A stretch of DNA of 64,000 bases from Cyanidioschyzon merolae (Eukaryota). The notes under the pieces are model-generated. The model worked only from the letters and a program-made list of their open reading frames with translations, had not been told where the DNA came from and searched no databases. Below are positions 7,580 to 60,786 of this stretch, one piece after another (position 1 is the first letter of the stretch; each line of letters begins with the position of its first letter). The DNA lies in assembly GCA_000091205.1 (NCBI GenBank), contig AP006501.2, one strand, 5' to 3'. A program made the position numbers and the translations under genes.

Positions 7580-8228
7580 CCCGGGTGCCGTGCGACGCCC
7601 ACGAAGTGATCTTTTTCGATAACAAGACGTTTATATGGACCATGGATCCTTTGTTGCTGGATCGGTAATGATATTCGAAAGAGCATCGATCGTAGTGATG
7701 CAGATCATTTCCAAGTTCCATTACTTTTACTTCCTTTCCGATATAATGGTCGTTTGTGCGTTTTCGCGTACCGCGAGTACCTGCAGTATGCATCCGCTTT
7801 AGCGCTTATAGCGCAGGTCAGGATACAGCACGGAGACAGAAGGGCTTTTCCGTACCACGAAGGGCGTCGGCTGGAGGTCTAGTTTGCCCGACACGGTGTT
7901 GGAGTCCATGATCATGCTGGGAGCCTGCAAGCTGCGCAGACGGACGCACTGCATGCGGCAGCGTGAATGGATATCGTAGGGGTCCACTACGACCAGGGCG
8001 AAACCTAAACGCAGATTACCTGCTCCTAGTCGCTGAAAGAACAGCGTTGCGAATGAGTTGCGCACATCTCTCCACAGCACCTGCCACTGGTCGGGAGCAC
8101 GAAGCACAAGCTCGGCTGACTCGTCCGGCTCGCGAGACCTTCGGCCTAGAGGGTAAACATTCGACAATATGGTAATCGTTTCCCCCGTTTAACGTATATC
8201 GTAACTGGGGAAATAAATTGGTATTGGA

Positions 8229-10167
8229 TTGCCAGATAGTAGTGAGTTTCGGTTCTTTGTTCGATACAGTGCGGTCGACAGGCGCACCTGGGAGATCTGG
8301 CAGTCACGAGGGAACGAAAGCCACGCAGATTACCGCCTCAACGGTACTCGATACAGAGATAACGGGGATATTTATGCCTGCGGGGCGATTGAGTGCGTCA
8401 CGTACCTGAAGAAACATTTGACCATGAACCCCGAACGTTTCATGATACGCTCCATCTTTGCACTCTACCCAGGTCTCGTTCGCAAAGGGATATGGATTAT
8501 CGTCGATGGCATCTTTAACGATAGTAAGAATGAAGAGAAGATCGAATTCGTCGACGAGAAGGCATCAAGCAGGCGAAGGAATGAGGCTTCTGTAATCTGT
8601 GCGGCTGTTCAAGAGCATCGTGAAGTCTTGGGGCTGGCCAATCCAACAGAAGAGATATCAGAGTTGAAAAACGATGAAGAAAGATACCATCCCCTCATCC
8701 TGTGCTATTTCGTGTTTTTGGACGGAGAACTCGAACGCGAGTCCGAAACGGAGCTGGGCGTGCGGAAAAATGAACTGTCGGAGAGACGAAAGGCTCCGCT
8801 TCTGGGGAACCACGTCAGTGTCGTTCCGTTATACAGCATCAACTCGCACGTTGTGTCTATCAGTTCCAGAGTCCTTCATGGCATTATCAGGGAGATCTGT
8901 TCGGAATTCAGCGTAAGCAGGGAGGAGTTCACCGGCGAAAATCGGGAGACGTACTGGAAGAACATCTTCGATTCCAGACGTCAGAAAGTTAGCAAGCAAA
9001 AGGTATTTACTGGGATGATCGAAACCGATGGGGTAGCCATTTGTGTACACCATCGACACTTGAAGGTGGATCGTTCTATTATGTCTTCGGCTTCGCCCGT
9101 GACGACGAATGAAGATGAGAAGGGGGCGGGTCCTGCGACGCAGAAAGTGCATAAAAACGACTTTGTCGTTGGTGCGGCGAAGCATGAAGATGAGAAGGAG
9201 GCGGCTCCTGCGACGCAGAAAGTGCATAAAAACGAGTTTGTCGTTGGCGTGGACCCTGGGACTACGAATATCATAACCATCGCAGAATCCAAGCGTGCAG
9301 AAGATGGTATTTACGGCAACCTACGTCAGAAAGACATGCGTCTGTTGAGGTTCTCGAGAGCGAGATAGTATCGAGAATCGGGAAACATGAATGCGAGGAA
9401 GAAAATTGCTGCATGGAATGCAGGAATGAAGGAGCACCTGGAAGCTATGAGCAAGGTGACGAGCCGCGGAGCGGACTTTGACGCTTTTCGGGAGTTCATG
9501 GAAGTTCGCATTGCGCATTGGGATGCGCTGTGGGAGGAGTATACAAAGCCCCGGTGGGCTCGTTTGCGTATGAACCTGTACTGCGGGAGGCAGCGTGCAT
9601 TTGCGAATTTTTTCAATGCGTTGAGCGCCTTGAAGGAGGACGAAAGTCAGAGGCTCGTAGTAGCGTACGGAGCAGGGCGCTGGAAGACCCAAAAAGGGAC
9701 TAGGCCAGCTCCAACGACAAGAACGTACAAGGAATGTGCACGGCGTTTTGCTACGATACCGATCGATGAGTTCCGAACATGGTATACACACCATGAACTG
9801 GGGCGTACAATTCAGAGGGTCAAGATGGAAACGTGTCAGCGGAGCCCTGAGGATATAGCAAAGTACGGACCGCTGACGGAGGAGCAAATGGAAAGGCGAG
9901 CGAAAGTGCGAGGGCTACTTACATCAGTAAGTACAACCAACGACGGCAAGAAACGTATGGAGTTTGGGAATCGTGAATTTTAACTCCGCTATCAATATAA
10001 AGAGATGTGCGGTGATGGAAACAAGACCTCCGGCGTTGACACGAAGGAGTTTTGTGGGACAACCTCTCAAAGTGGAACTATATGAGAAAAAATTGAAGCC
10101 AATTGTAGGTAGCCAATCCAAAAAAGCGGGGAGGCGTCTGCACCTCAGTTGGAGACGTTTTATCTGA
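8229..10167 (+). pseudogene. TnpB/Fanzor-like RuvC nuclease gene, disrupted (in-frame TAG at 9366-9368, frameshift near 9975)
   Basis: RuvC-I-like motif [15 protein letters not shown] in ORF 8229-9368. RuvC-III-like motif NREFNSAINIKRCAVME spans the 9387-9983 and 9964-10167 ORFs. A degenerate zinc-finger region lies between them. The overall order matches TnpB. Confidence 0.65.
9111..9260 (+). repeat. Tandem 75-bp duplication (2 units) immediately preceding and including the RuvC-I strand
   Basis: The units are gaagatgagaagg(g/a)ggcgg..cctgcgacgcagaaagtgcataaaaacga(c/g)tttgtcgttgg.. repeated. Translated, they are [25 protein letters not shown] and [25 protein letters not shown]. The same duplication is present in copy B at about 42583-42732. 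Confidence 0.7.
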
Positions 10168-10255
10168 AGCGCGTTTGCCGCCACTACCGCATACCGCTGC
10201 GGCCAGTGTTTTTCTTTTGAGAGACGTTTGTTTTCAGGGGTGCTGTCCCTAGCAT
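10168..10255 (+). ncRNA. Conserved non-coding tail 3' of the Fanzor-like ORF; candidate omegaRNA scaffold / right-end sequence
   Basis: About 75 nt directly after the stop are conserved between copy A (gcgcgtttgccgccactaccgcataccgctgcggccagtgtttttcttttgagagacgtttgttttcagg) and copy B (43629-43695, gcgccggtcaccactactttgcactaccgaccacagcgtttttctttagaaaggcgttttttgtcgg). The similarity ends abruptly afterwards. Confidence 0.3.
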
Positions 10256-10292
10256 TCCGTTTCGGGAGCCGTTCGTAAGATAGGTACGTTCT

Positions 10293-11306: not shown

Positions 11307-13164
11307 AGGTGCGCACGCCTGAGCATCGCACCGGTGCAACCTAGGCCTGGTCCGAGAACACGAGCTTACCTCTGCGTCGGAGTTGAGCGCTTGCCCACAT
11401 ACGACTGCGGTGCTCTACATGGGCATAATATGCCGCAGACAGGGACCAAAATCGTTCCAAACATCAATGTAGCTTGTTCGGTTGCTGTGGTGCCGCGCGA
11501 CAAGGCGACGTCGCTATCCGGCTCCTTCGAGGCCCTGGCAGTCTGGGCGTTTACGCAGACGCAGCATTTTCTTCGATGGATGGGAACAGATGTGAAACGC
11601 CTTTGCGATCGCGGTGTGGACTCTCGTCGAGCGCCTGTGTGATGTCGAAATCGTGCATGCTGGAGCGCATGCATTGGCTCGTGCTGCTGAACGCATAGGA
11701 GCGCCTTTGGCGTAAAACACTTTGGAAAAGGAGTCGATGACGCTTTCTTTTCTTCGAATCAGTCGTCTAGATGAGCGTGGCGGCATCGGCTGCGACCTGC
11801 AACCGGTTCAGGCTCGTGGTCGCTGCAGTGCGACCGGCTGGAATGCCAGACACCCTTCGAGCGTGCTCAGCGCTGAACTTTTCAGCGCCGGTGCTGCCAA
11901 CATCGCGTGTACCTCTGTCAGAAACGACAAATACCAACGCGCCCAAACATCTGCAAAGCTCCTATCCTGAGGCGGGACTATTACAGAGGAGTTGCTCAAT
12001 GAGGTCCGGAGAGGGCGGCTCCAGCGGTGGTAGCTGCAAGTGCGCTGCGCGCAGGCTGATCCAATGGCAACAGGTTTCGTGTCCGACAGCGTCGCTACAG
12101 TCGCGCAGGCAAACCAGGTGCTGGTCCCGACACACGTCGTACTCGCGAACGTAGACCGCCTGCCAAACCCGCAGCCGTGCCAGCCAGAGATGCAGATGCT
12201 GTCCAGTGAGCGACTGGCGCTCCAGCGGACGTACCACCTCCGGGCCCGATGCGGCCTGCCTCGAACCTGGAGGAGTAGCGACGACCGCTGATCCGTTCGA
12301 GGGCGCCAGGGGCACCGGCGCGCACCCTGCGGCGCGTCCACCAGGCGCGCAGTGCGCTGCTGCTGATGAAGCGTCCGCGTTCGACATGCGTACGCGGTTC
12401 TTGCGGCAGAAAACGCGTTTGGGTCGGCAGTGCCCCAGGGCATGCTCGGCGTGGAGCAACTCGTCACGGGATACGTGCCCCCATTTTACGAGCGCGCTAG
12501 CCCGATGGCTGCATGAGCGCGAGCAGTACCGGCCCGCGCCGAACGTGCCTGCATGCATCGTTCCGCAGACAACACATGCACGGCTACCTGGCCCAAGACG
12601 CGGAAGCCTGCGTCCACGCGCTGCTGCTGGGGCGCGTGCTGTACGCTTCCGCTGCTTTTCGCGATGTTTCCGCGGCTGCTTGCGCCGGTTCTCCATGGGT
12701 GCTGGTGCAGAGCTCTGCTGAGAGTGCGTCGGAGAGGCCCCGGCGACGAACCAGATGTCGCGTTCAACAGCATCGCACAAGCTTTCATCCTGATAAGCAT
12801 CCAACCATTGTTCCACTGGAGTCTGATCTGTAATGGGCGTTGCACGTGACATATGTGAATCCTATAGAAGACAAAACACAGGAAGAGATACGCGCGCGCG
12901 CTCGGAACCTGCATGTCGTCCGCAGGGGTGCACGCATGTTGTGCGCGTCACGGATCGTGCTGTGATGGCGCCATCTGCGTGTAGATTGCGAACGTGACAT
13001 ACGGATGATACGCTTTCAGCTCAATTGTATTCCGCATACGTGTGTGTGTGTGTCATGAAATGCTTTTTCATTGTGTACGGCAGATGCCATGAAACTGGGA
13101 TCATTTGGTGAAATAAAGTCTTAGGGAGGGGTACGGACATCAAAGTCGGGGATCCTGGAGAACC

Positions 13165-13615
13165 CGGCGTTGCCGGCTGCCAGAAAAACAAGGGAAGAAT
13201 CGTCATTTTGTCGAGTATCGAGCGAAGAAGAGCAAGTGAAGGAAAAGACGCAGAGGGGAAATATGCGAGAAAAAGTGTTTGCCCGACATGACGGTGACGA
13301 GACTCCAAAGGTACAGAGAGCGCGAATTCTAGCAATCCTTGCACTGGTTTGTTGAAATAGAAGCATGAAACGCAAGAAGTTGGTGAAGCTAGACGTCAAC
13401 GCCACAATCAATACAAGACAGTGTGCTTTGCTGAAGACGAGATCCGCGGAGCTGAGGCGGTCCAGCTTCGTGGGACATCCTCTGATACTCGAAGCGGGCC
13501 TGGAGAGAAAGTGAAGCGGATACCACGCGGCAATTCAAAAGAGGCTGAGAGGCGTCTGCGCCTCGGTATTCATTTATCCTCCATGTTCGTGATCTATTCT
13601 TTGTTTCATTGACAT
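13165..13615 (+). mobile_element. Internally deleted (MITE-like) derivative of the Fanzor-like element
   Basis: The 5' part matches copy B at 41240-41340 (gccggctgccagaaaaa...). The 3' part matches the C-terminal end of the gene and the tail: DVNATINTRQCALLKTRSAELRRSSFVGHPL corresponds to NREFNSAINIKRCAVMETRPPALTRRSFVGQPL, and ggaggcgtctgcgcctc matches. About 2 kb of internal sequence is missing. Confidence 0.55.
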
Positions 13616-15210
13616 GTCTATAGGATAGAACACGCAGACGTTCGCTGTATTTCTCCCCGTCAATATATCCGGAACTTTTCTTAGGTATTCCGCCCTGACA
13701 TTCAAAATATAGCAGCGAAGGCTCACGGGTGCATACGTAGCTTTTAGGGCTTCTAGCTCGGTCGTCATTTCGGAGCGGTACCTTCGACGCTTTGCCGATG
13801 ATCCTGATGACGTCCCGCGAACCAAGATGCTTCGCGACACTACGCAACAACGGATCCTAAAATAACCGATATCATGATGCGGTGCATACGTAGAGGCCTT
13901 CACTCGTCTCTTGTCCCTAGGCCGAGCGTCCTCAAATCACGCCTGCTGCACGTGTTCGATCTTTCCGGTTCAAGGCTACTCGACAGCGAAGCGATTCGCG
14001 ACGCTGGAACGACGATGAAACAACAGAAAACCCGATACCACCCTATGACAGTGCGTAGAGAAGCTCATGCCGAAAGTGCACGCAACGCGTCTCCTCAAGT
14101 AATCGATTTGCTTCGATAGAGGCATGTTCCGCTCTTTCTGGTTGACGTCGAAGGCGCGTTCCGCAGTCGCATCGTACCTGTCACAGGATTTGCGCCCAGA
14201 GGATGCCGTCTCTTCTGTATGTATGGGAATGAGGCTTGGAGTCGGACTCGAGTCACCACACAGAGATCACCTCCGGAATACATCCGTTCATTTACCGCTT
14301 CGCACCGGCGGAGCGTCGATGGATTGCGCACGCGCGACTTGTTCTCGAGCCCGAGTCTTCCTTCCGGAACCTATTTTATCATGGCCATGATCGCGTTCTA
14401 CAAACGCGCTTTCGAATGGAATAGCGTTCGCTTGCGTGTGCAACAGAGAAGAACCGCTCGCCGTGGGATTCCGCTGAAGATGCCCGTCATCGTTGCGTGC
14501 GTCACCGGATATGGAACCCGAGCACGACATGGAGTCGCGCGCTACGTACCCACCATGTGCACGTAACGAGCAGTGAAGCGAGCGCTCTTGTGCAACAGAG
14601 CGGCCCTTGGTGAAGCATGTGCGTCGGACACAGGAGCGCACTTGATCGCAGGCAAGGATCATGGCCGCAAAGGGTGCATCGACTCGATCGACAGAGAAGA
14701 TGAATTTGGCAGGCGACGTGTGCATGGCAACTTTCACCTGTGCATGAAATGCGTGAATAGCAGCCCATAGCTGCGAAAATGGGAATTTCATGTGGGCATC
14801 ACCATGCTTCGCCTGTTGACAATAGAGTTGAGGTAGCGGCAGCACTCGGCATGAGGAAAGATGGAGCACAGAGCGCGCAAAACGCACAAGCTGCAGAGAT
14901 AGCCGGCGGAAGCAGGTATCGATCATACTGAAAAGGTACCCAGACTTGACCGTCTGCTCTCGAGCGACTTCCCTGGATCCTTGCTTTCGTGGACTGGCAT
15001 AGGTGTGTGAAAATCGTGTCATTGCTTTGCGAGCCCGCTGGGTGCGCGCAATAGAAGTCGCACCCGCACTTGCTGCAGCGCTGAAGTTTGCAGCACAGTC
15101 GAGCTTGCAGGACGGAAACTAGACCAGAGTTGCCTCCAAGTGAGTCGCGCCCTACTGGCCGGGCTGCAACTGCTTGTCCGCCGTTCACAGCTCGCAGGTT
15201 CGCTGCGGCT

Positions 15211-39965: not shown

Positions 39966-40382
39966 AAGAAGTGCCTTTCTGCGGAACACTGCGAACTGTT
40001 ATGGGTCCATGCGTCCACGCTGCACACGACCGTCGGTAGGACACGTGGCTGCACCGCGTTCCCCGTTCCAGTCCGGTCGATGCGGTACCGTCAACAACCG
40101 CACTGGAGACGTGCTCTTCCAGAGTTCTACCTACGCGTAAACTAAGACCGCGGCGGGTACGTGCGCTTCTTATGGACCCTCTGTGGGTACCCGGCAGAAC
40201 TCGCTAGCGGTCGGGTAACGAGCGCACCACTGCTACGGCTCCTGTACAGGGGCTTCGGCGACGGTGCCTGCGCACTCTCTTTTCTTTTCGCTCACCAAAC
40301 GTTTATGTTGTACCTGGATCCCTTATCGCGGGACGAGAACTGGCTATCGGGAAAACGCCCATCGTGATACGCCTCACCCTCA

Positions 40383-43300
40383 AGTTCCATTCCTTACAAT
40401 TCCTTTCGGATGTACTGGTCGTTTCATAGGTTGTAGCGAGCATCGAGTGCCCGTCGTGCTGCATCCACCTTGGCGCCTAGACAGCTGGTGCAGATGCACC
40501 TTAGAGACAGAACGGCTTTGCCGTACCACTGGGGGCTTCGGCTCGAGATGTGGTGCACCTGACACGGATTCGGAGTCCATCATCATGCTGGGGGCCTGGA
40601 AACTGCGCTGAAAGAGCTACCGTCTGCGGCAGCTCGAAGCGACATGCCGGGAGTCCACTGCGACCAGGGCGACGCCCAGACGCAGCCTAACTGCTGCTCC
40701 TAGTCCCAGAGTCGACTGCGTTGCGGACGAGGTGTTCAGGTCGCACCACTGCACTAGGCACAGGTAAGGGCGTGAAGCACTAGTCTTGCAGACTCGTTCG
40801 GATTGCGGGACGTTTCGCCCTGAAGGCAAACTTTCGAAAGTATGGAAACCTTTTCGCCCTTTTAACGGCTACCGTGGAATGGGACAGGAATCGTTACATC
40901 GTTTCTCGTGAATCGTTCGTCTCTTTCCTTTTTTTCTCCGAATAGCGCGGTCGATAAGCACACCTGCGAGATCACGCAGTCACGAGAGACGACGCGCATG
41001 TCGCCGATGAAGGGAAACGCGTTTCTAACTATGCTCTGACCTATTGCCCTACCGTACATGTTGTATTCGAATTACAGGCGTAGCGGAGTACAGTTTTTTG
41101 AGTTCAATCGCGTTTGAAACGTCAAGTAAGCATATTCAAGTGATGCTGTGCGGTGTATAGGAGAAGCGTTCAATGTGCGTTCTTTCGCAGAAAAAATTCT
41201 AAAAAAGGAAAGTTATGAGAAAGCAAGTCGACGATCGCGGAGGCGCAGTGTCGCCGGCTGCCAGAAAAAGAACGAAAAACGGTGCCGAGCCCAGGAGCAC
41301 AGGCAAAGACGATGAAGCAGAAGCGGGAGGCCCTACGTCAAAGGCCGCGGGAAAGACAACAGTACGACGAGACGGTGGTGAAAGCGTACCTTCGTAAACA
41401 TATCAAGGATGCCTACAAGGAAAAGTTGCGAGAGGCCATCAGAAACCGTGTCGAGTCGTACTCCACGAGTACGAAGAAGGCTTCGTCAGGACTGATGCAT
41501 ATGATGAACGAGATGCACGACAACGCGACGGACACCAGAACAGTCGAGGTTCCGGGGGAATTTTTCAACAAGACCTTTGCTCGTCACCTGATGGTCGGCA
41601 CAGGGGAGCCGTCGACAAACAATGAGCGAGTGCACGCCTTCCACGAAAACTTCGCGGGATTCGGCTTCGAAGGTGCATCGATACAAGGGTTACGGGGATA
41701 TTCACATCTACGGGCCGATCGAGTACCTCGCGAACCTGAGGAACCATTTGACCATGAACCTCGAAGGTTTCATGATAAGCGCCGTGTTTGCGCTCTACCG
41801 GGGCCTCTCTCGCGGGGAAGAGATGGGCCATCTTCGCTGCCATCACCAACGATCGTCAGCATGAACAGGCAATAGAATTTGTCGACAAGATGACATCACG
41901 CAGGAGCATGAATGAAGCATATGTGATCGGTGCAGCTATTCAAGAGCGTCGTGGTGACACGGAGGTAGGGGGTTGGATAGATACTTCACCTCGCACTGAA
42001 AAAATATCACAAAAAGTAAGGAAAGTAAAATGCGCATAATCGGAGAACGCTGGCCCAAGTAAACGTTTTGTCCATGGAAAAAAAGAGCATCGTGAAGTCT
42101 TGGGGCTGGCCAACCCGACAGAAGACGTGTCAGATATGAAAAAAGTGAGAAAAGATGGTACCCCCGCATCCTGCGCTACTTCGTGTGTCTGGACCGAGAA
42201 CTCGAACGCAAGGCGGAGATGGTGCTGGGTGTGTGGAAAAATGAAGAGTCGCGGAGACGGAACGCTTTCCCAATGGGGAAGTGCTTCAACGTGGTTCCAA
42301 TGAGCAACATCAAGTCACATTTTGTGACTATCGACCAAGGCGTCCACTACGGCAACATGAGTGAGATCAGTCCGGTGTTCGGTGTCAGCAGGGAGGAGTT
42401 CACCGGTGAAAATCGGGAGACGTACCGGAAGAGTCTCTTCGGTTTCAAACGTCTCAAAGTGAGCAAGCAGAAGGTATTCACGGGGATGATCGGAACCGAT
42501 GGCGTAGCCACGTGTGTACGCTATCGGAGGTTTGAAGGCGGATTGTCCAGTTCGGCCTTCGATATCGCCCGTGACGAAGCATGAAGAAAACAGGGAGGAG
42601 GATCCTGCCACACAGAAAGTGCAGGATAACGACTTTGTCGTTGACGCGACGAAGCGTGAAGATGAGATGGAGGCGGGTCCTGCTACGCAGAAAGTGCAGG
42701 ATAACGACTTTGTCGTTAGTGCGGATCCCGGGAACACAAATATCATAACCATCGCAGTACCCAAGCGTGCGGAAGATGGTATCAACGGCAACCTACGTCA
42801 GACGGCCCTGCGAGTTTTAAGGTTCTCGTGAGCGGGATGCTATCGAGAATCCGGTATGATCAATGCGAGGAAGAAAATTGAGACACGGAATGCAGGAATG
42901 AAGGATCACCTGGAAGCTTTGCGCGGAGTAACGAGCAGAGGAGCAGGCTTTGAAGCTTTTCCGATATTCATGGAAGGTCGCGTTGCTCATTGGGATGCGC
43001 TGCTGGAGGAGTATACAAAGCCCCGGTGGGCTCGTCTGCGTATGAATCTGTACGGTGGTAAGCAGCGGGCATTCGCCAAATTTTTCAGTCAGTTGAGTGC
43101 CTTGAAGGAGGACGAGAGCCAGAGGCTGGTAGTGGCATACGGAGCAGGGCGTCCACAAAAGGGTGCACACCAGCTCCGTCGACGAGAACGTACAAAGCGT
43201 GTGCACGGCGCTTTGTAATGATACCGATTGATGAGCTCCGAACGTCCTATACACACCACGAACTGGGGTGCACACTTGAGACGGTCGACATGGAAAAGTG

Positions 43301-43695
43301 CCAGCGGAGTCCTGAAGATATGAAAAAGTATGGAGCGCTAACGGAGGAGCAAATGGACAGGAGGGCGAAAGTTCGTGGACTACTCGCATTAGTAAGTACA
43401 ATCAATGGCAAGAAACGCATGGAAATTGTTAACCGCGACTTTAACGCGGCTACCAATATAAGGAGGTGCGCGGTGATGGAGAGAAGACCTCCGTACTTGA
43501 CAAGAGGGAATTTTGTAGGGAAACCTCTCGAGGTGGAATTATACGAGAAAAAGTTGAAACCGGTAGTAGGTGGCCGGTCCAAAAACACTGGGATGCGTCG
43601 ACAAGTCTGTAGAAGACTTTTCGTCTAGGGCGCCGGTCACCACTACTTTGCACTACCGACCACAGCGTTTTTCTTTAGAAAGGCGTTTTTTGTCG
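40383..43695 (+). mobile_element. Fanzor-like element, copy B: 5' module plus full-length but frameshifted nuclease gene plus conserved 3' tail
   Basis: Homologous to copy A along its whole length. It has an extra ~630-bp N-terminal coding segment (41010-41640) that is absent from copy A. Confidence 0.6.
41215..43628 (+). pseudogene. TnpB/Fanzor-like RuvC nuclease gene, disrupted (at least 5 frame changes and an in-frame TGA at 42829-42831)
   Basis: The N-terminus is basic and NLS-like (KQKREALRQRPRERQ...). The RuvC-I motif is [15 protein letters not shown] (42514-42831) and the RuvC-III motif is NRDFNAATNIRRCAVMERR (43218-43628). The coding sequence is split over ORFs 41282-41875, 41622-41864, 41788-42039, 42183-42584, 42514-42831, 42856-43218 and 43218-43628. 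Confidence 0.65.
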
Positions 43696-44118
43696 GCGAT
43701 GTGAGGATTCTTTTACATGCTTAAAGTACTGCGTCAACCAGATCGAGTCCGTGTCTCGAGCTGAGCACTTCCGGTAGCGTCTGGTCGTCGGCCATTTGGG
43801 AGCACGCGCCCTAGACGAGCATCGTGTGTGTGGCATTACCTGTGTGGACCAGGTTTGTCAAGGGAAACAATTTCACGCTGAGTTCCAAAAGTTCGGTCCT
43901 TGTGTATTTTTGCTTGCCAGGAGCACAGGTCACCAGCAAGGAAGTTCGTGATCAGATACTGCCAAGATCCGACGAGTCGTGTAGCATCGTCCCGGAGATG
44001 TTAGGGCAGGCCCCCGAGCTACCACTCGCAAGCCACGCATTCGCCTCGCAGGTACGTGAATCATCGACAAGAAGCCGGATTCAATGGCACATCCTGAACA
44101 TCTCAGCAAATCGTGATC

Positions 44119-46323: not shown

Positions 46324-47680
46324 CCGCGTAGAATGAAACTGGAACAATGTTCCGCTCGCTCTGCACTCGTCTTGCGATTTGATTCGCAAAAGTTCTTGGA
46401 TGCACAGCATCGATACGCCAAGTGCAGCAACAACGGCTTACGGACTCAAACGTAGTTTTCGGGATTCTCGGTCGGGCGTTTTTCTCTCGGAGTGACCTGT
46501 TCGTCGTCCATTCACCGCTGGAATGCGTTCCGTCGCCAGATTCATGTTGAGTCGCGCCACCCTCGAACCAGCGTCCCTGGCATAACCTATTTTATGATCG
46601 AATGCATTGGGGCAAGCATCCATTCTTCTGATTTTTTCAAGTATGGGATGCTCAAATCGCGCATTCCTCAATATGTCGTATCTCTATGTTTCGGGGCCAT
46701 TGGTGGATGCAGCGATTCGCGGCCCCGGATTCACGACGGCTCAAGAGACGCGATGTCGTCTCCTGGACGCTTGTGCACCAGCTGATGCCCAGAGTTCGCC
46801 GCAATGGTCTCAGGTCAAACGATCGCTTCCGTTCGAAGCACGAGTCCGCCGCTCTGCACGGCTATCGACGAAACATCGTCCGGCAGCAACACGAGCCTCT
46901 CACGGGATATGCATTCGAAGGCTCCCATCGCTTTCATTTGCATGAACAGCGGTCTTGGACTCGGAGTCGAGACGTCGCAGGAATCGCGGCCAGTGGAGCG
47001 CTCGGTACCGTACGGCACGAGCGGGACGTTGACGGATCCAAGGCGTTTTGGCCTGCTTGCCGGCCTGGACTTGACGCTTACGGTACTTGTTGCACGGTGG
47101 ACGGCATCGCGTTCCCTAAACCCTCCTTCGGATGGAACGCGCTGCACTTGCGCGTGCAGCGCACACCGTACTCGCCGATGCGATCTGCCCTGACTAGCGC
47201 CCGTGATCGTAGCGTACGGCACCGGGCGCGGAAACGGCGGAGCGCATACAGGGGATCCCGCGGTACCCGTCAAGACCGTGTATCGAGCGATGAAGCGCGC
47301 CTTCAGATGACGCAGTGCAGGGTGTGGCGGAGAACGTGCCGCGCGCACACAGGAACTCGTGATACGAGTCAGGAGTCACGGCTGCACCCCAGGAAGGCTC
47401 GTGAATCGCAACTTGCGCCTGTACATGAAGTGCGTCGACGATACCGGGGAGCTGCGAAATCGGGACGTGCACGTTGGCCTCAACATCGTTCAACAGCTGA
47501 CGTCGGAGCTGGATGTGCGGGAGGTACCGGCGTTTATCACTCTGCAGGGAATTCGGAGAAAAGAAAGAGGCAGGCACAGAAAGCGCACGACGACGACGCA
47601 TGGATACGTAGCAATCGGAAGAATCGGGAAAGATAGGTTGTGGGCGCGAGATTCACCTCGTGGACCTGTCAAGATACATA
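46324..47680. repeat. Left arm of a 1.35-kb, ~99% identical inverted repeat
   Basis: Reverse-complement identity with 51523-52880 was checked directly on several stretches. Identical 316-aa ORFs (46686-47636 on plus, 51566-52516 on minus) differ at 2 residues. Confidence 0.85.
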
Positions 47681-51522: not shown

Positions 51523-52880
51523 ATCAATCTTGACAGGTCCACGAGGTGAATCTCGCGCCCACAACCTATCTTTCCCGATTCTTCCGATTGCTACGTATCC
51601 ATGCGTCGTCGTCGTGCGCTTTCTGTGCCTGCCTCTTTCTTTTCTCCGAATTCCCTGCAGAGTGATAAACGCCGGTACCTCCCGCACATCCAGCTCCGAC
51701 GTCAGCTGTTGAACGATGTTGAGGCCAACGTGCACGTCCCGATTTCGCAGCTCCCCGGTATCGTCGACGCACTTCATGTGCAGGCGCAAGTTGCGATTCA
51801 CGAGCCTTCCTGGGGTGCAGCCGTGACTCCTGACTCGTATCACGAGTTCCTGTGTGCGCGCGGCACGTTCTCCGCCACACCCTGCACTGCGTCATCTGAA
51901 GGCGCGCTTCATCGCTCGATACACGGTCTTGACGGGTACCGCGGGATCCCCTGTATGCGCTCCGCCGTTTCCGCGCCCGGTGCCGTACGCTACGATCACG
52001 GGCGCTAGTCAGGGCAGATCGCATCGGCGAGTACGGTGTGCGCTGCACGCGCAAGTGCAGCGCGTTCCATCCGAAGGAGGGTTTAGGGAACGCGATGCCG
52101 TCCACCGTGCAACAAGTACCGTAAGCGTCAAGTCCAGGCCGGCAAGCAGGCCAAAACGCCTTGGATCCGTCAACGTCCCGCTCGTGCCGTACGGTACCGA
52201 GCGCTCCACTGGCCGCGATTCCTGCGACGTCTCGACTCCGAGTCCAAGACCGCTGTTCATGCAAATGAAAGCGATGGGAGCCTTCGAATGCATATCCCGT
52301 GAGAGGCTCGTGTTGCTGCCGGACGATGTTTCGTCGATAGCCGTGCAGAGCGGCGGACTCGTGCTTCGAACGGAAGCGATCGTTTGACCTGAGACCATTG
52401 CGGCGAACTCTGGGCATCAGCTGGTGCACAAGCGTCCAGGAGACGACATCGCGTCTCTTGAGCCGTCGTGAATCCGGGGGCGCGAATCGCTGCATCCACC
52501 AATGGCCCCGAAACATAGAGATCCGACATATTGAGGAATGCGCGATTTGAGCATCCCATACTTGAAAAAATCAGAAGAATGGATGCTTGCCCCAATGCAT
52601 TCGATCATAAAATAGGTTATGCCAGGGACGCTGGTTCGAGGGTGGCGCGACTCAACATGAATCTGGCGACGGAACGCATTCCAGCGGTGAATGGACGACG
52701 AACAGGTCACTCCGAGAGAAAAACGCCCGACCGAGAATCCCGAAAACTACGTTTGAGTCCGTAAGTTGTTGTTGCTGCACTTGGCGTATCGATGCTGTGC
52801 ATCCAAGAACTTTTGCGAATCAAATCGCAAGACGAGTGCAGAGCGAGCGGAACATTGTTCCAGTTTCATTCTACGCGGGT
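51523..52880. repeat. Right arm of the 1.35-kb inverted repeat (reverse complement of 46324-47680)
   Basis: See left arm. The inner boundary is ...ctcgtggacctgtcaagat on both arms. The outer boundary is ccgcgtagaatgaaactgg. Confidence 0.85.
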
Positions 52881-57365: not shown

Positions 57366-59869
57366 GCGACGTCTACGTACCTCGCCGGGGAACCAGCAGC
57401 AAGCATCGTTGTGGTGTGCGTCGGACCGAACGCTTCTCGATAGACGGGCTAGATTGGGTCCGCAGCGACGCCTTGCGAGCACCTTCACCAGCGGTATCTG
57501 GACATTAAAGGTTTGTATTCGGGAACGGAATGTTTGGATTGTACAGCATGCGGAGAAACTGCTGCGGCACGTATAGGGCTTTGGGGATAAGCGCAAAGGC
57601 GGGACCTTTGGTGCCGTTGCATTAAGAATGATAGTTTATTTTCTTATTTGCCGCGAAGGATTTGTTCTCCGTGGCCTAGGATGAGATCATACGATCTGTA
57701 AAGCTTCACACATGTTGTGCATGTTTCCAGGGCGACCGTGCTCGAGCGCCGAAGAAGGGTTTCGCAGGGTACTTGCACCGCAGCATGCATGGTCCGCGCT
57801 TGCTGCTCACCAATATTAAAAACCTCATCCATTGCCCATAGTGGCGTTGAAGGATCCAGAAAAAGCAAGTCCTGCTGTGTGCGTCTTGTGCCGATATGCT
57901 GCGGACGCGAACCTCCATGAGGAACGCGCTCAGGGAACGGAGAAAATTGCCCTTGCTCCGCAGTCATTCTAGGAAGGATTTATGGTTTTGGTCTTTCTGG
58001 CCTCTAGGTTGACACCTTTTGAGGATGAAAGACCTCGTACGCACGGGTCGTTCTCGCGGTGGTCCATGTGATTACCATGTCCATAGGTGGGATCGTTCCA
58101 AATCCAGCATCCCTTTCGGATGCGAAACGCTGCGGTTCGGAGCACTGATCTGGTGGTATGCATGTGGATACCGCGTTACCCGGTGACAACCAGGCTGTGA
58201 ATTTTCACTTTATGAAATCTGGCTCAGCATAGCACGCGAGTCGCTCATTGGTGCAGACGCTCACCCACATAGGTTCAAGCCACGTCAGGCAGCAGTGACG
58301 AGAGCGTTGCAGGCTATCGCGGCGGGACGCAGAAGCTGATGTGGCATAAACGTCCGGGAACGGCCTTGATGCACCGATCAAGGCTCCGTAGGTCACGCGT
58401 GGTAGATATGTATATGAAGTTGTAAAAGTTGCGAGTCTGGCGTCCGTGATCCATCTACAGCAGCGCCAGATTTGCATAGAAGACTGCACCGCTAGCGCTT
58501 CTTCTGCTTTTCGATTTTTCCGAACTGATGTTAGATGCAAAGCCTCGATATTTGAAGTGTAGCAATGAGGGCGTACGTTTTCGTGCGTAGTGCTAGAGAT
58601 CTCTGACCCATTCACGGAGAAGCGCGTTCGACGCTTTGCTGGCGGGATTCGTCACGTCACCGCTATCACGAAGATTCGCGATGTTCTCGAGCAAAACATT
58701 CATATCTATGTGGTGCAATTATTCAATGCATACGCACAAGTGTCCACTTGTCTCCCTTGAGTACGTCTAACATGCTCAAAACATGCATTGTTCAAGATTT
58801 GACCTTCTGTTTCAGGGAAACTTGAGGGCGCAACAGTTCGCACCGTTGGATTATCATGGAAAAAATACTCGACGTCGTTTTTTGAGGAATTCCTAAAAAG
58901 CTCATCCCGAAAGCTCACTGAACCCGTCACGTAAACTGCTCGATTCCGTTCGAAAAATGATTCTCTTCCCTTGGTAGTCATCAATGAAACGGCACTCGAC
59001 AGCCGTATGATACCCCTCGCAGGGCATGTTCTCAGAGACTATCTTCTCGACTGTTTCCATGGAAACCAGTCTTGGCACCAGACTTTGATCGCAACGATCG
59101 CTACCAGTGGAGCTATCGTTACTGCATGGCACGAGGAAAGGGTATACGGATCGACACTTTTCGACCTGTTCTCTAGACTGGATTTTGCCTCCGGTACTTG
59201 TTCCATCATGGACAACACCGCGTTCCGAAAAATCCGTCATCGAATGGAACGGCATGCGCTTCCATGTGCAGCGAAGCGTATACTTGTTAGGTGAATCGTC
59301 CAGAAGAAGGCCACGATCGCAGGGCACGGCACCGGATAAGAAAACAGATCAGAGCAATGAGAGCAGCTTTCTGTAACCGTGAACTGTGCGTATCGAGCAA
59401 TGGAGCAAGCGTTCACGCGCTACATTTGGGCCGGTTTGGAGGAAGTTTGACGGATATACTGTAGAGCTTGTCCACATTCAACTGTCACCGCTGTGAACGG
59501 CGCACCGAGGCTATGCATAAAGGAGATCGACCTGACGAACGAAGCATAGACCACAACTACCGCCTATCCGTGGTATGCATCAACAACCTCCGGAATCAGC
59601 GTCATTGAAACCTGAGCGCTACCGTCAACTTCCCTCGACTGCGGGCAACAGATCTGTAGTGGAAGAGGCGACCGGCTGATTGAATGCCGAAGATAGTAGG
59701 GTTGAAGCGCAGGCATTCTTAGAATAAAGCTCTTAAATTCTTATGTTGATGATAGTGGGAAGATAACCACACATTCGTGTGTTCGTCTGGGGAAGAGCCT
59801 ATGTCCTAGTTTAGAGTAACATGGCAGTGAAGCGAAAAATGTACCATGACGATATGGGGTAAATTAATA

Positions 59870-60090
59870 TCCACTCACAGGCACCCCGCAGCCTTTTTCG
59901 ACCAGCCCCCTGTTATCGGCTTCAGCTTCTCTCCGTACACTTCGAGCCCGAGAGGCTACCCCACGGAGTTGGATGGCGCCAGCTCCTCGGATCTCGTCTT
60001 CAGCACTAGACATCATCTCATCTTGATGGCGGCGTTGAAGTCTCGGTTCACAAACTCCTTGCATCCATTGCCGCTGGTGGAACACATTCA
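59870..60090 (-). mobile_element. Solo 3'-terminal fragment of the Fanzor-like element (minus strand)
   Basis: The reverse complement encodes STSGNGCKEFVNRDFNAAIKMR, a RuvC-III motif. It continues with homology to the copy A/B C-terminal coding and tail sequence (gctgaagccgataacagggggctggtcgaaaaaggctgcggggtgcctgtgagtgga). Confidence 0.5.
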
Positions 60091-60786
60091 TGCAAGGATT
60101 CCTTGAACTCGCGCCCTCTATGCCATTACAGTCTCGTAATCCTTCTATTGGGCAAACATATTTTTGTTTGCCTATCTCCCCTCCCCCTCTTCCTTTTCGA
60201 TATATGCTCTTCTTCACTCGTTAGTCGGCAAGAACAGAAACGTTTATGTGTTTTTCCTGCAGCCCGTAATGAAGGCCCTCCACCATCCCCGACTTCCATG
60301 TCCATACCTCTCCCTTGTATTTTTCATTTCTTCAAATGAACGTACTTCGAACACATCTGCTATAAACAGCGAATAAGCGTTTGATGATACGCTTCTTGAG
60401 ATGGAACCTAAATGAATCGAAAGAGTAGAGGAGCCAGACGGGTATGAGGTCGAAACTAATCTGAAACAATTTAGTATAAAATTTGCAACTGCGGTACGCT
60501 GGACCCCCGCGATCGCTATGAAGCGTTCCCCGAAATCATTTTCATACCAGTAATTCTCTTACTTTAACCAGAGGCCAGACTTGGCGCGGTACGAGATTCT
60601 CAGGCTCTTCCTCTAAGTTTCTCAGTGGAACAGGGACCGACGGCGTCACTGTTGCTGTTGCGGAAGAGTCCGAGCTCGTGCTTCGTCTGTGGCTTTCGGA
60701 CGCGAAACACTTGTTGCTAACAGGCAGCTCACACACACGCACAGGAGCGTACCAGTGCTCCGCGACGTACGGTGATACTCGACTGC

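Follow-up and report, generated by a model that had tools for sequence, protein, structure and literature searches.

Conserved tail after two Fanzor1 pseudogenes as a probable ancestral omegaRNA scaffold and transposon right end

The noncoding tail that follows the stop codon of two Fanzor1 pseudogenes (copies A and B) in the window, i.e., the whole 64,000-nucleotide stretch of DNA analysed here, is probably the ancestral omegaRNA scaffold and right end of a Fanzor1 transposon, and is now a relic. It was read in this way because it matches the omegaRNA of SpuFz1 in position, size and layout. As judged by comparing the family copies, the tail is the right end (RE) of a non-autonomous Fanzor1 transposon of about 2.75 kb, in which a conserved noncoding region runs up to the end of the element. 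The preliminary description of this DNA had suggested the scaffold and right end for the tail. In favor of that proposal are the Fanzor1 gene, the presence of the right end in all family copies and the SpuFz1-like layout; against it are the lack of covariation on a sequence-only alignment, conservation at the level of synonymous sites, and a fold in copy A no better than shuffled sequence.

Tails of copies A and B and their boundary

The features of the two tails, and of the copy A sequence adjoining its tail on each side, are as follows.

10129..10164, + strand: copy A, coding-region stem S1 (GAGGCGUCU...AGACGUUUU), overlapping the last 12 codons; 84% of cells paired
10165..10186, + strand: copy A, remnant of hairpin S2, 5' arm mutated (TGAAGCG); from folds and the family consensus
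10168..10242, + strand: copy A, noncoding tail (RE), 75 nt, ending ...CAGGGGTG; match to covariance model R1 at 10129-10234, 57.5 bits
10192..10242, + strand: copy A, terminal stem-loop S3, core 10205-10214 with 10219-10228, loop 10215-10218; from the MFE structure
10243..10258, + strand: copy A, flank directly past the RE, unrelated in sequence among copies
43629..43701, + strand: copy B, noncoding tail (RE), 73 nt; R1 match of 49.1 bits; terminal hairpin core 43664-43673 with 43678-43687

The tails follow a TGA stop codon at 10165-10167 in copy A and a TAG stop codon at 43626-43628 in copy B. Global alignment of 10168-10242 with 43629-43701 gave 52 identities in 78 columns (67%), compared to 48 ± 3% for 1000 shuffles, of which the highest reached 59%. 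Identity between the two copies was 76% within the last 200 nt of the ORF and fell to 49%, the random level, within the 75 nt beyond the tail; by blastn, 8611-10235 of copy A aligned with 42083-43694 of copy B at 78% identity. The similarity of the tails is therefore real and its end is sharp. The conservation noted in the preliminary description thus stands, at an identity lower than the 75-80% given there, as does the sharp end of homology, which had been placed at 10255 and 43695 but lies at 10242 in copy A (...CAGGGGTG followed by CTGTCC) and near 43701 in copy B; exact element ends are uncertain by 2-3 nt. A chance likeness of A and B after the stop codon, for which only the short length of the tail could be argued, is refuted by the excess over every shuffle and by the occurrence of the same sequence in more than 50 other copies, and its likelihood is negligible.

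Eighty related loci were obtained from one metagenome scan, which reported 202 confirmed stretches, and three more by exact look-up (L001-L083); 81 of these were scanned for ORFs. The same tail, following the stop codon and stopping at the same end point, was present in more than 50 distinct metagenome copies. The family consensus of the tail reads TAG GGCGNG..CNCGCC ACTAC TGTACACCG.. CGTCGTTCGA CTT TCGAACGGCG TT..GGTG, with unrelated sequence directly after it, and the mean pairwise identity among copies dropped from 0.68 within the tail to 0.26 in the flank. Measured so as to include the stop codon and the final GGTG, the span was 62-78 nt, mostly 68 nt; the 78 nt of copy A correspond to 75 nt after its stop codon. 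Homology in other copies past the boundary, which the preliminary description had named as counter-evidence, was sought and no blastn match from 81 related loci extended beyond 10244. The end of the tail is the boundary of the element and not the edge of a segmental duplication. A scan of the window with R1 detected no tail copies besides A and B, and the tails of two closer relatives of the A/B subfamily (L082 and L083) were decayed and added little.

Within the RuvC region, identity at codon positions 1 and 2 was 0.87-0.90, compared to 0.72-0.75 at position 3; since positions 1 and 2 are the more conserved, the family diversified under selection at the protein level. The tail, with a mean pairwise identity of 0.70, is at the level of the third codon positions, and therefore no extra constraint on its primary sequence was detectable; any constraint on the tail acts on pairing.

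Nuclease identity and decay of the copies

The conceptual proteins of copies A and B contain the motifs GxDPGxTNI, IDEFRTS and NRDFNAAxNI, and all three RuvC motifs, DPG (I), DEFRT (II) and NRDxNAAxNI (III), are found in the family consensus and in copy B. The protein had no match in Pfam, including the Pfam TnpB models, none by phmmer against the PDB, and none with a narrow family profile; an AlphaFold2 model prepared from a shallow alignment had a mean pLDDT of 37 and was unusable. The 71 relatives returned by a word-indexed search were metagenomic throughout (JGI or ENA), and an exhaustive HMMER search returned 1469 representative clusters at E ≤ 0.001. The sole search that matched a known protein employed the broad profile A8, comprising P0005 (a close relative of A and B) and 49 distant relatives that are 25-43% identical to P0005. 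This profile matched the PDB Fanzor1 chains PpFz1 (E = 7.9e-19), SpuFz1 (E = 7.3e-12) and GtFz1 (E = 2.2e-5), and the DPG, DEFRT and NRDxNA motifs were aligned with the same motifs in PpFz1 and SpuFz1. Because solved Fanzor1 proteins were matched with their catalytic motifs aligned, the family is assigned as a branch of Fanzor1, in agreement with the earlier view that the gene preceding the tail encodes a nuclease.

The coding parts of the two copies, and the region of their conceptual proteins that corresponds to the zinc finger, are located as follows.

8270..10167, + strand: copy A, Fanzor1 pseudogene including the left end (TGCGGTCGAC...) and ending with the stop codon, with one in-frame stop and one frameshift
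40946..43628, + strand: copy B, Fanzor1 pseudogene preceded by its 5' UTR and the left end; start codon (ATG) at 41215, stop codon at 43626-43628
about 9770-9990 (copy A) and about 43230-43450 (copy B), + strand: zinc-finger region of the conceptual protein

The zinc-finger cysteines of PpFz1 and TnpB are mostly missing here between DEFRT and NRDFNAA (HHELGC...EKCQ...RGLLALVST). A 25-residue repeat in tandem lies directly upstream of the first RuvC motif, at 9103-9172 and 9178-9247 in copy A and at 42570-42642 and 42645-42717 in copy B; the repeat number is two in both copies and reaches five among the relatives P0001, P0005 and P0006.

An intact expressible ORF was present neither in copies A and B of the window nor in any of the 81 related loci L001-L081. 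Compared to copy B, copy A has a deletion of about 650 bp that covers the 5' UTR and N-terminus, and its frameshift falls just ahead of the last catalytic motif, motif III reading NREF and then shifting frame. Copy B has several frameshifts and stops, together with a 118-bp insertion. A and B are two old insertions that decayed independently. The insertion in copy B (about 118 bp, 41965-42082), which has no counterpart in A and carries the 12-nt direct repeat AAGAGCRTCGTG on both sides, looks like a small insertion with target duplication, or it could represent a slippage event. The least-decayed locus, L081, has one nonsense codon, 35 codons ahead of the natural stop. Within the window the tail is a relic, the proteins being broken and the tail of copy A being without excess stability.

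Two further fragments in the window preserve part of the coding sequence.

13050..13617, + strand: ghost-like derivative that belongs to a diverged subfamily and has lost internal sequence; the start of the ORF is retained, as is the 3' coding end, and the tail is different
59819..60390, - strand: second ghost-like derivative, 68% identical to 13050-13617

These solo fragments had been described as keeping the upstream part of the tail region. Both do retain the 3' coding end, to about GGCGTCTGCRCCTCGGTA, but it is then followed by a different, AT-rich tail that could not be aligned with that of A and B. The ghost-like derivatives constitute a multi-copy subfamily of their own, also found in L009 (5387-5698), L043 (3198-3428), and L017 and L021 (3604-3923); the tail of this subfamily is AT-rich and is without the S2 and S3 hairpins.

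The setting is eukaryotic: the neighboring ORFs encode ankyrin/RING, SGF29, PP2C, actin-family, DDAH_eukar and GluRS proteins, the other ORFs of the window are ordinary eukaryotic genes without introns, and the neighbor at L081 is GRAM/VASt. Elsewhere in the window there is a near-perfect inverted repeat of 1352 nt (46324-47675 and 51527-52878), whose ORFs differ by two residues; the 3.9 kb between its arms contains ORFs resembling cpn10 and ribosomal protein S3a.

The family, from the pattern of substitutions and of disrupted ORFs, was active while it diversified and appears to be now extinct in the sampled populations. At the level of the genome, two repeats and two deletion derivatives are explained as relics of one extinct transposon family. 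A large uncharacterised branch is added to Fanzor1 (the 1469 representative clusters), the close relatives from the first search being solely metagenomic, and for this branch both the guide-RNA scaffold and the element boundary are now concretely predicted, which provides a basis for rebuilding a consensus nuclease and guide. No new mechanism is revealed.

Fold of the tail

Single-sequence folds recurrently gave, in order, S1, S2, a linker and S3. S1 lies within the last 12 codons (GAGGCGUCU / AGACGUUUC) and is tentatively proposed, from the structural model, as a possible 5' part of the RNA; no useful covariation in S1 was obtained with either the model-fitted or the MAFFT alignment. S2 is a hairpin with the stop codon at its base, paired to CUA, and its family consensus, with the stop codon included, is UAG-GGCGNG...CNCGCC-A-CUA. 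S3, the terminal hairpin, has 10 bp, and outer pairs often lengthen it as far as the last bases of the element. An exact CACC/GGTG closing helix was present in just 16 of the 54 copies, and this helix is therefore proposed tentatively.

The family mean of the MFE z-score was -1.85 for the tail, with 43% of copies below -2, compared to -0.05 for the adjacent flank. S3 had at least 7 bp in 50 of the 54 copies, with a mean z of -2.8. The sense strand was more stable than the antisense by 6.7 kcal/mol in 51/54 copies, the excess arising because of the many G-U pairs, and no asymmetry was seen in the flanks; the p-value for this strand effect is inflated by kinship, i.e., it overstates independence because the copies are related. 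Two subfamily versions of S3 were found, CGTCGTTCGA-CTT-TCGAACGGCG and AACGTTTTTC-TTTT-GAAAGGCGTT, that differ at 7 of 27 positions and in their pairing registers. Both fold, at -13.8 and -9.9 kcal/mol respectively, energies that seven random substitutions attained in 0.05% and 3.1% of trials; mixed intermediates between the two versions were mostly much weaker.

The least-decayed copy (L081) folded into S1, S2 and S3 with a z of -2.1 to -2.5. Within the window, the tail of copy A was no better than its shuffles (z of +0.1 to +0.3); its S3 has a 7-bp core (-6.4 kcal/mol) with outer pairs that close on the last base of the RE. The tail of copy B gave a z of -0.8 to -1.9, and its terminal hairpin of 10 bp a z of -3.1.

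The preliminary description had proposed a structured RNA scaffold to be checked by fold and covariation, and the outcome was divided: the excess stability supports it, as does one of the two alignments employed, but the other does not. RNAalifold applied to the MAFFT alignment returned a 3-bp stem only, with no covariation; the two S3 variants pair in different registers, beyond the reach of a sequence alignment. In the covariance-model alignment as well, A and B were matched on sequence and not on pairing. A hand-drawn structure placed on the MAFFT alignment was 76% paired, compared to 37-59% when slid along it, and its covariation was within that of shuffles (77/500 and 230/500). The alignment fitted with R1 comprises 92 matches (74 distinct) of related sequences and by construction leans toward the structure; on it, two-sided changes occurred in 16 of 28 pairs, compared to 10.0 ± 1.7 for shuffles, and in 47 cells, compared to 20.6 ± 3.4. 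Neither value was attained by any of 500 shuffles, and every slid control was lower. Covariation was thus significant solely on the model-fitted alignment and not on the sequence-only one. Rfam gave no family match, the lone hit being to RAGATH-8 at 12 bits (E = 1; gathering score, 86.7).

These data bear upon a simpler explanation, namely that the tail is the remnant of a 3' UTR plus the terminus of an old repeat, A and B being alike by common descent and the hairpins incidental. Identity at the level of the third codon position, the lack of significant covariation on the sequence-only alignment, the pseudogene state of every copy and the shuffle-level fold of copy A would all be expected from it. 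The family-wide excess of stability over neutral flanks would not, nor would the sense strand being favored in nearly all copies, nor two S3 versions that both fold despite being seven substitutions apart, an outcome seldom reached by random change, nor two-sided changes that exceed every shuffle and slid control on the fitted alignment; on balance, we consider a 3' UTR remnant quite unlikely.

The preferred reading, a former omegaRNA scaffold and right end, would entail the following in active ancestors of the family. The Fanzor mRNA most likely continued past its stop codon, across the right end and into the DNA beyond; the final codons together with the tail of 60-75 nt would then fold to form S2 with the stop codon, the linker, and S3 with its 10-bp terminal hairpin and closing helix. 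S2, linker and S3 would be the omegaRNA scaffold bound by the nuclease, and about 15 nt of flank past ...GGTG would serve as guide. We infer by analogy with the studied systems that a tail RNA was transcribed and processed, was bound by the nuclease and functioned with a guide. For copy A, 10243..10258 would represent the guide segment if such a read-through omegaRNA were made, given that the SpuFz1 guide is 14-15 nt (PMC10432273).

Element ends and comparison with known systems

The left end begins at 8270 in copy A and at 40946 in copy B (CGCG[C/G]TCG...). It includes two GC-rich hairpins (8270-8330 and 40946-41000), which are also present in L012, L053, L078 and L081; the stems differ between copies with the pairing kept (GCGCTC/GAGCGC versus GCTCG/CGAGC; GCGCGT/ACGCGC; CCTGG..CCAGG versus CCTCC..GGAGG). 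No significant terminal inverted repeat was found between the ends, the best being 6-8 nt (CGCACC/GGTGCG) and generally within shuffles; a suspected repeat, GCGCACC...GGTGCGC, was dropped since it was not above shuffles. By eye, no target-site duplication was seen in the few loci with unique flanks. The independent left flanks, which are few, mostly end in ...AT; the endings at most independent loci are ...CAT, ...AAT or ...ATAG. The element contains the Fanzor ORF only, with no transposase gene within it.

A repeat of 560-660 bp, "module a", adjoins the Fanzor left end in A, in B and in at least 10 metagenome loci, the right flanks of which are unrelated.

7712-8269 and 40285-40945: module a, adjoining the left ends of copies A and B; also in L078, L052, L015, L030, L051, L003 and others

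A solo module a at 20525-19979 (- strand) ends exactly at the junction, and another set of loci has a different left-hand module in common. Module a may reflect a composite element, preferential targeting or insertion in tandem.

The tail might instead have acted as a transposon end at the level of DNA only, its hairpins and GGTG being signals for a transposase (e.g., subterminal hairpins recognized in single-stranded DNA, as in IS200/IS605) with no guide RNA. This would be compatible with the GC-rich hairpins at the left end, whose stems vary in sequence between copies, with the lack of a convincing terminal inverted repeat and of a target-site duplication in loci with unique flanks, and with the strand-specific stability, which fits a top-strand DNA hairpin, or one in a single-stranded transposition intermediate, as well as an RNA. 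It is at odds with the placement of S2, a hairpin that has the stop codon in it and is set back 50-70 nt from the end, as is typical of an RNA scaffold, and with an element that has no transposase gene. A purely DNA-level end is in our view unlikely; nor is it exclusive of the scaffold, since the right end doubles as transposon end and omegaRNA template in every TnpB and Fanzor system studied (PMC10432273, PMC11423790, 10.1101/2023.08.09.552727).

A more speculative proposal, and a doubtful one to which we give little credence, is that this family moves or moved within a eukaryotic nuclear genome by a sequence-directed mechanism like that of IS200/IS605 or IS607, and not as cut-and-paste cargo. 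It was suggested because the ends are asymmetric and bear hairpins, without a detectable inverted repeat or target-site duplication, and because the left end abuts one unrelated 600-bp repeat in many loci. If true, the right-end hairpin would have two roles, in the omegaRNA as its scaffold and in transposition as a signal. Yoon et al. (10.1101/2023.08.09.552727) state that eukaryotes have no reported IS200/IS605 elements.

The omegaRNA (reRNA) of TnpB from ISDra2 and other IS200/IS605 and IS607 elements has as its template the final part of the nuclease gene together with the right end, and its guide starts from the element boundary, as is proposed here; the ends of those elements are likewise asymmetric and bear hairpins. 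In contrast, those systems are prokaryotic, are accompanied by TnpA and have longer scaffolds (about 130-150 nt) with a pseudoknot, and the protein here had no match to Pfam TnpB. Among the Fanzor1 proteins, GtFz1 of Guillardia theta is the weakest of the three matches; its omegaRNA scaffold overlaps the end of the ORF, by 17 codons (PMC10432273, PMC11423790). A comparable overlap is proposed here, where S2 holds the stop codon and S1 may occupy the last 12 codons. Among relatives with a solved structure, PpFz1 of Parasitella parasitica (PDB 9cf0; PMC11423790) gave the best match. It has a 5'-ATN TAM, and most of the independent left flanks here, only a handful, end in ...AT; the zinc-finger cysteines of PpFz1 are mostly missing from the present family. 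The first stem-loop is a conserved seven base pairs in three Fanzor1 structures (Xu et al., PMC11423790).

The closest comparison is with the Spu-1 element of Spizellomyces punctatus, which encodes SpuFz1. The two systems differ in several respects: the ends of Spu-1 are inverted repeats that are well conserved, whereas none is significant here; no alignment of the two sequences is obtained; transcription and RNA-guided cleavage have been demonstrated for SpuFz1, whereas in the present family they would have belonged to the active ancestors; and, unlike SpuFz1, every copy here is a pseudogene and the ghost-like copies have a different tail. The SpuFz1 omegaRNA derives from 75 conserved nucleotides that lie directly 3' of the ORF within the right end and comprise two stems and a linker; according to Saito et al. 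(2023, PMC10432273), its transcript has a variable guide extension of 14-15 nt and binds to the nuclease. The family described here has a protein related to SpuFz1 by profile (the A8 match given above) and, like Spu-1, is a single-ORF element of about 2-2.8 kb with many partial copies and ORF-less "ghost" derivatives, in which a conserved region of about 75 nt, predicted to form two stems and a linker, extends from the ORF to the right end.
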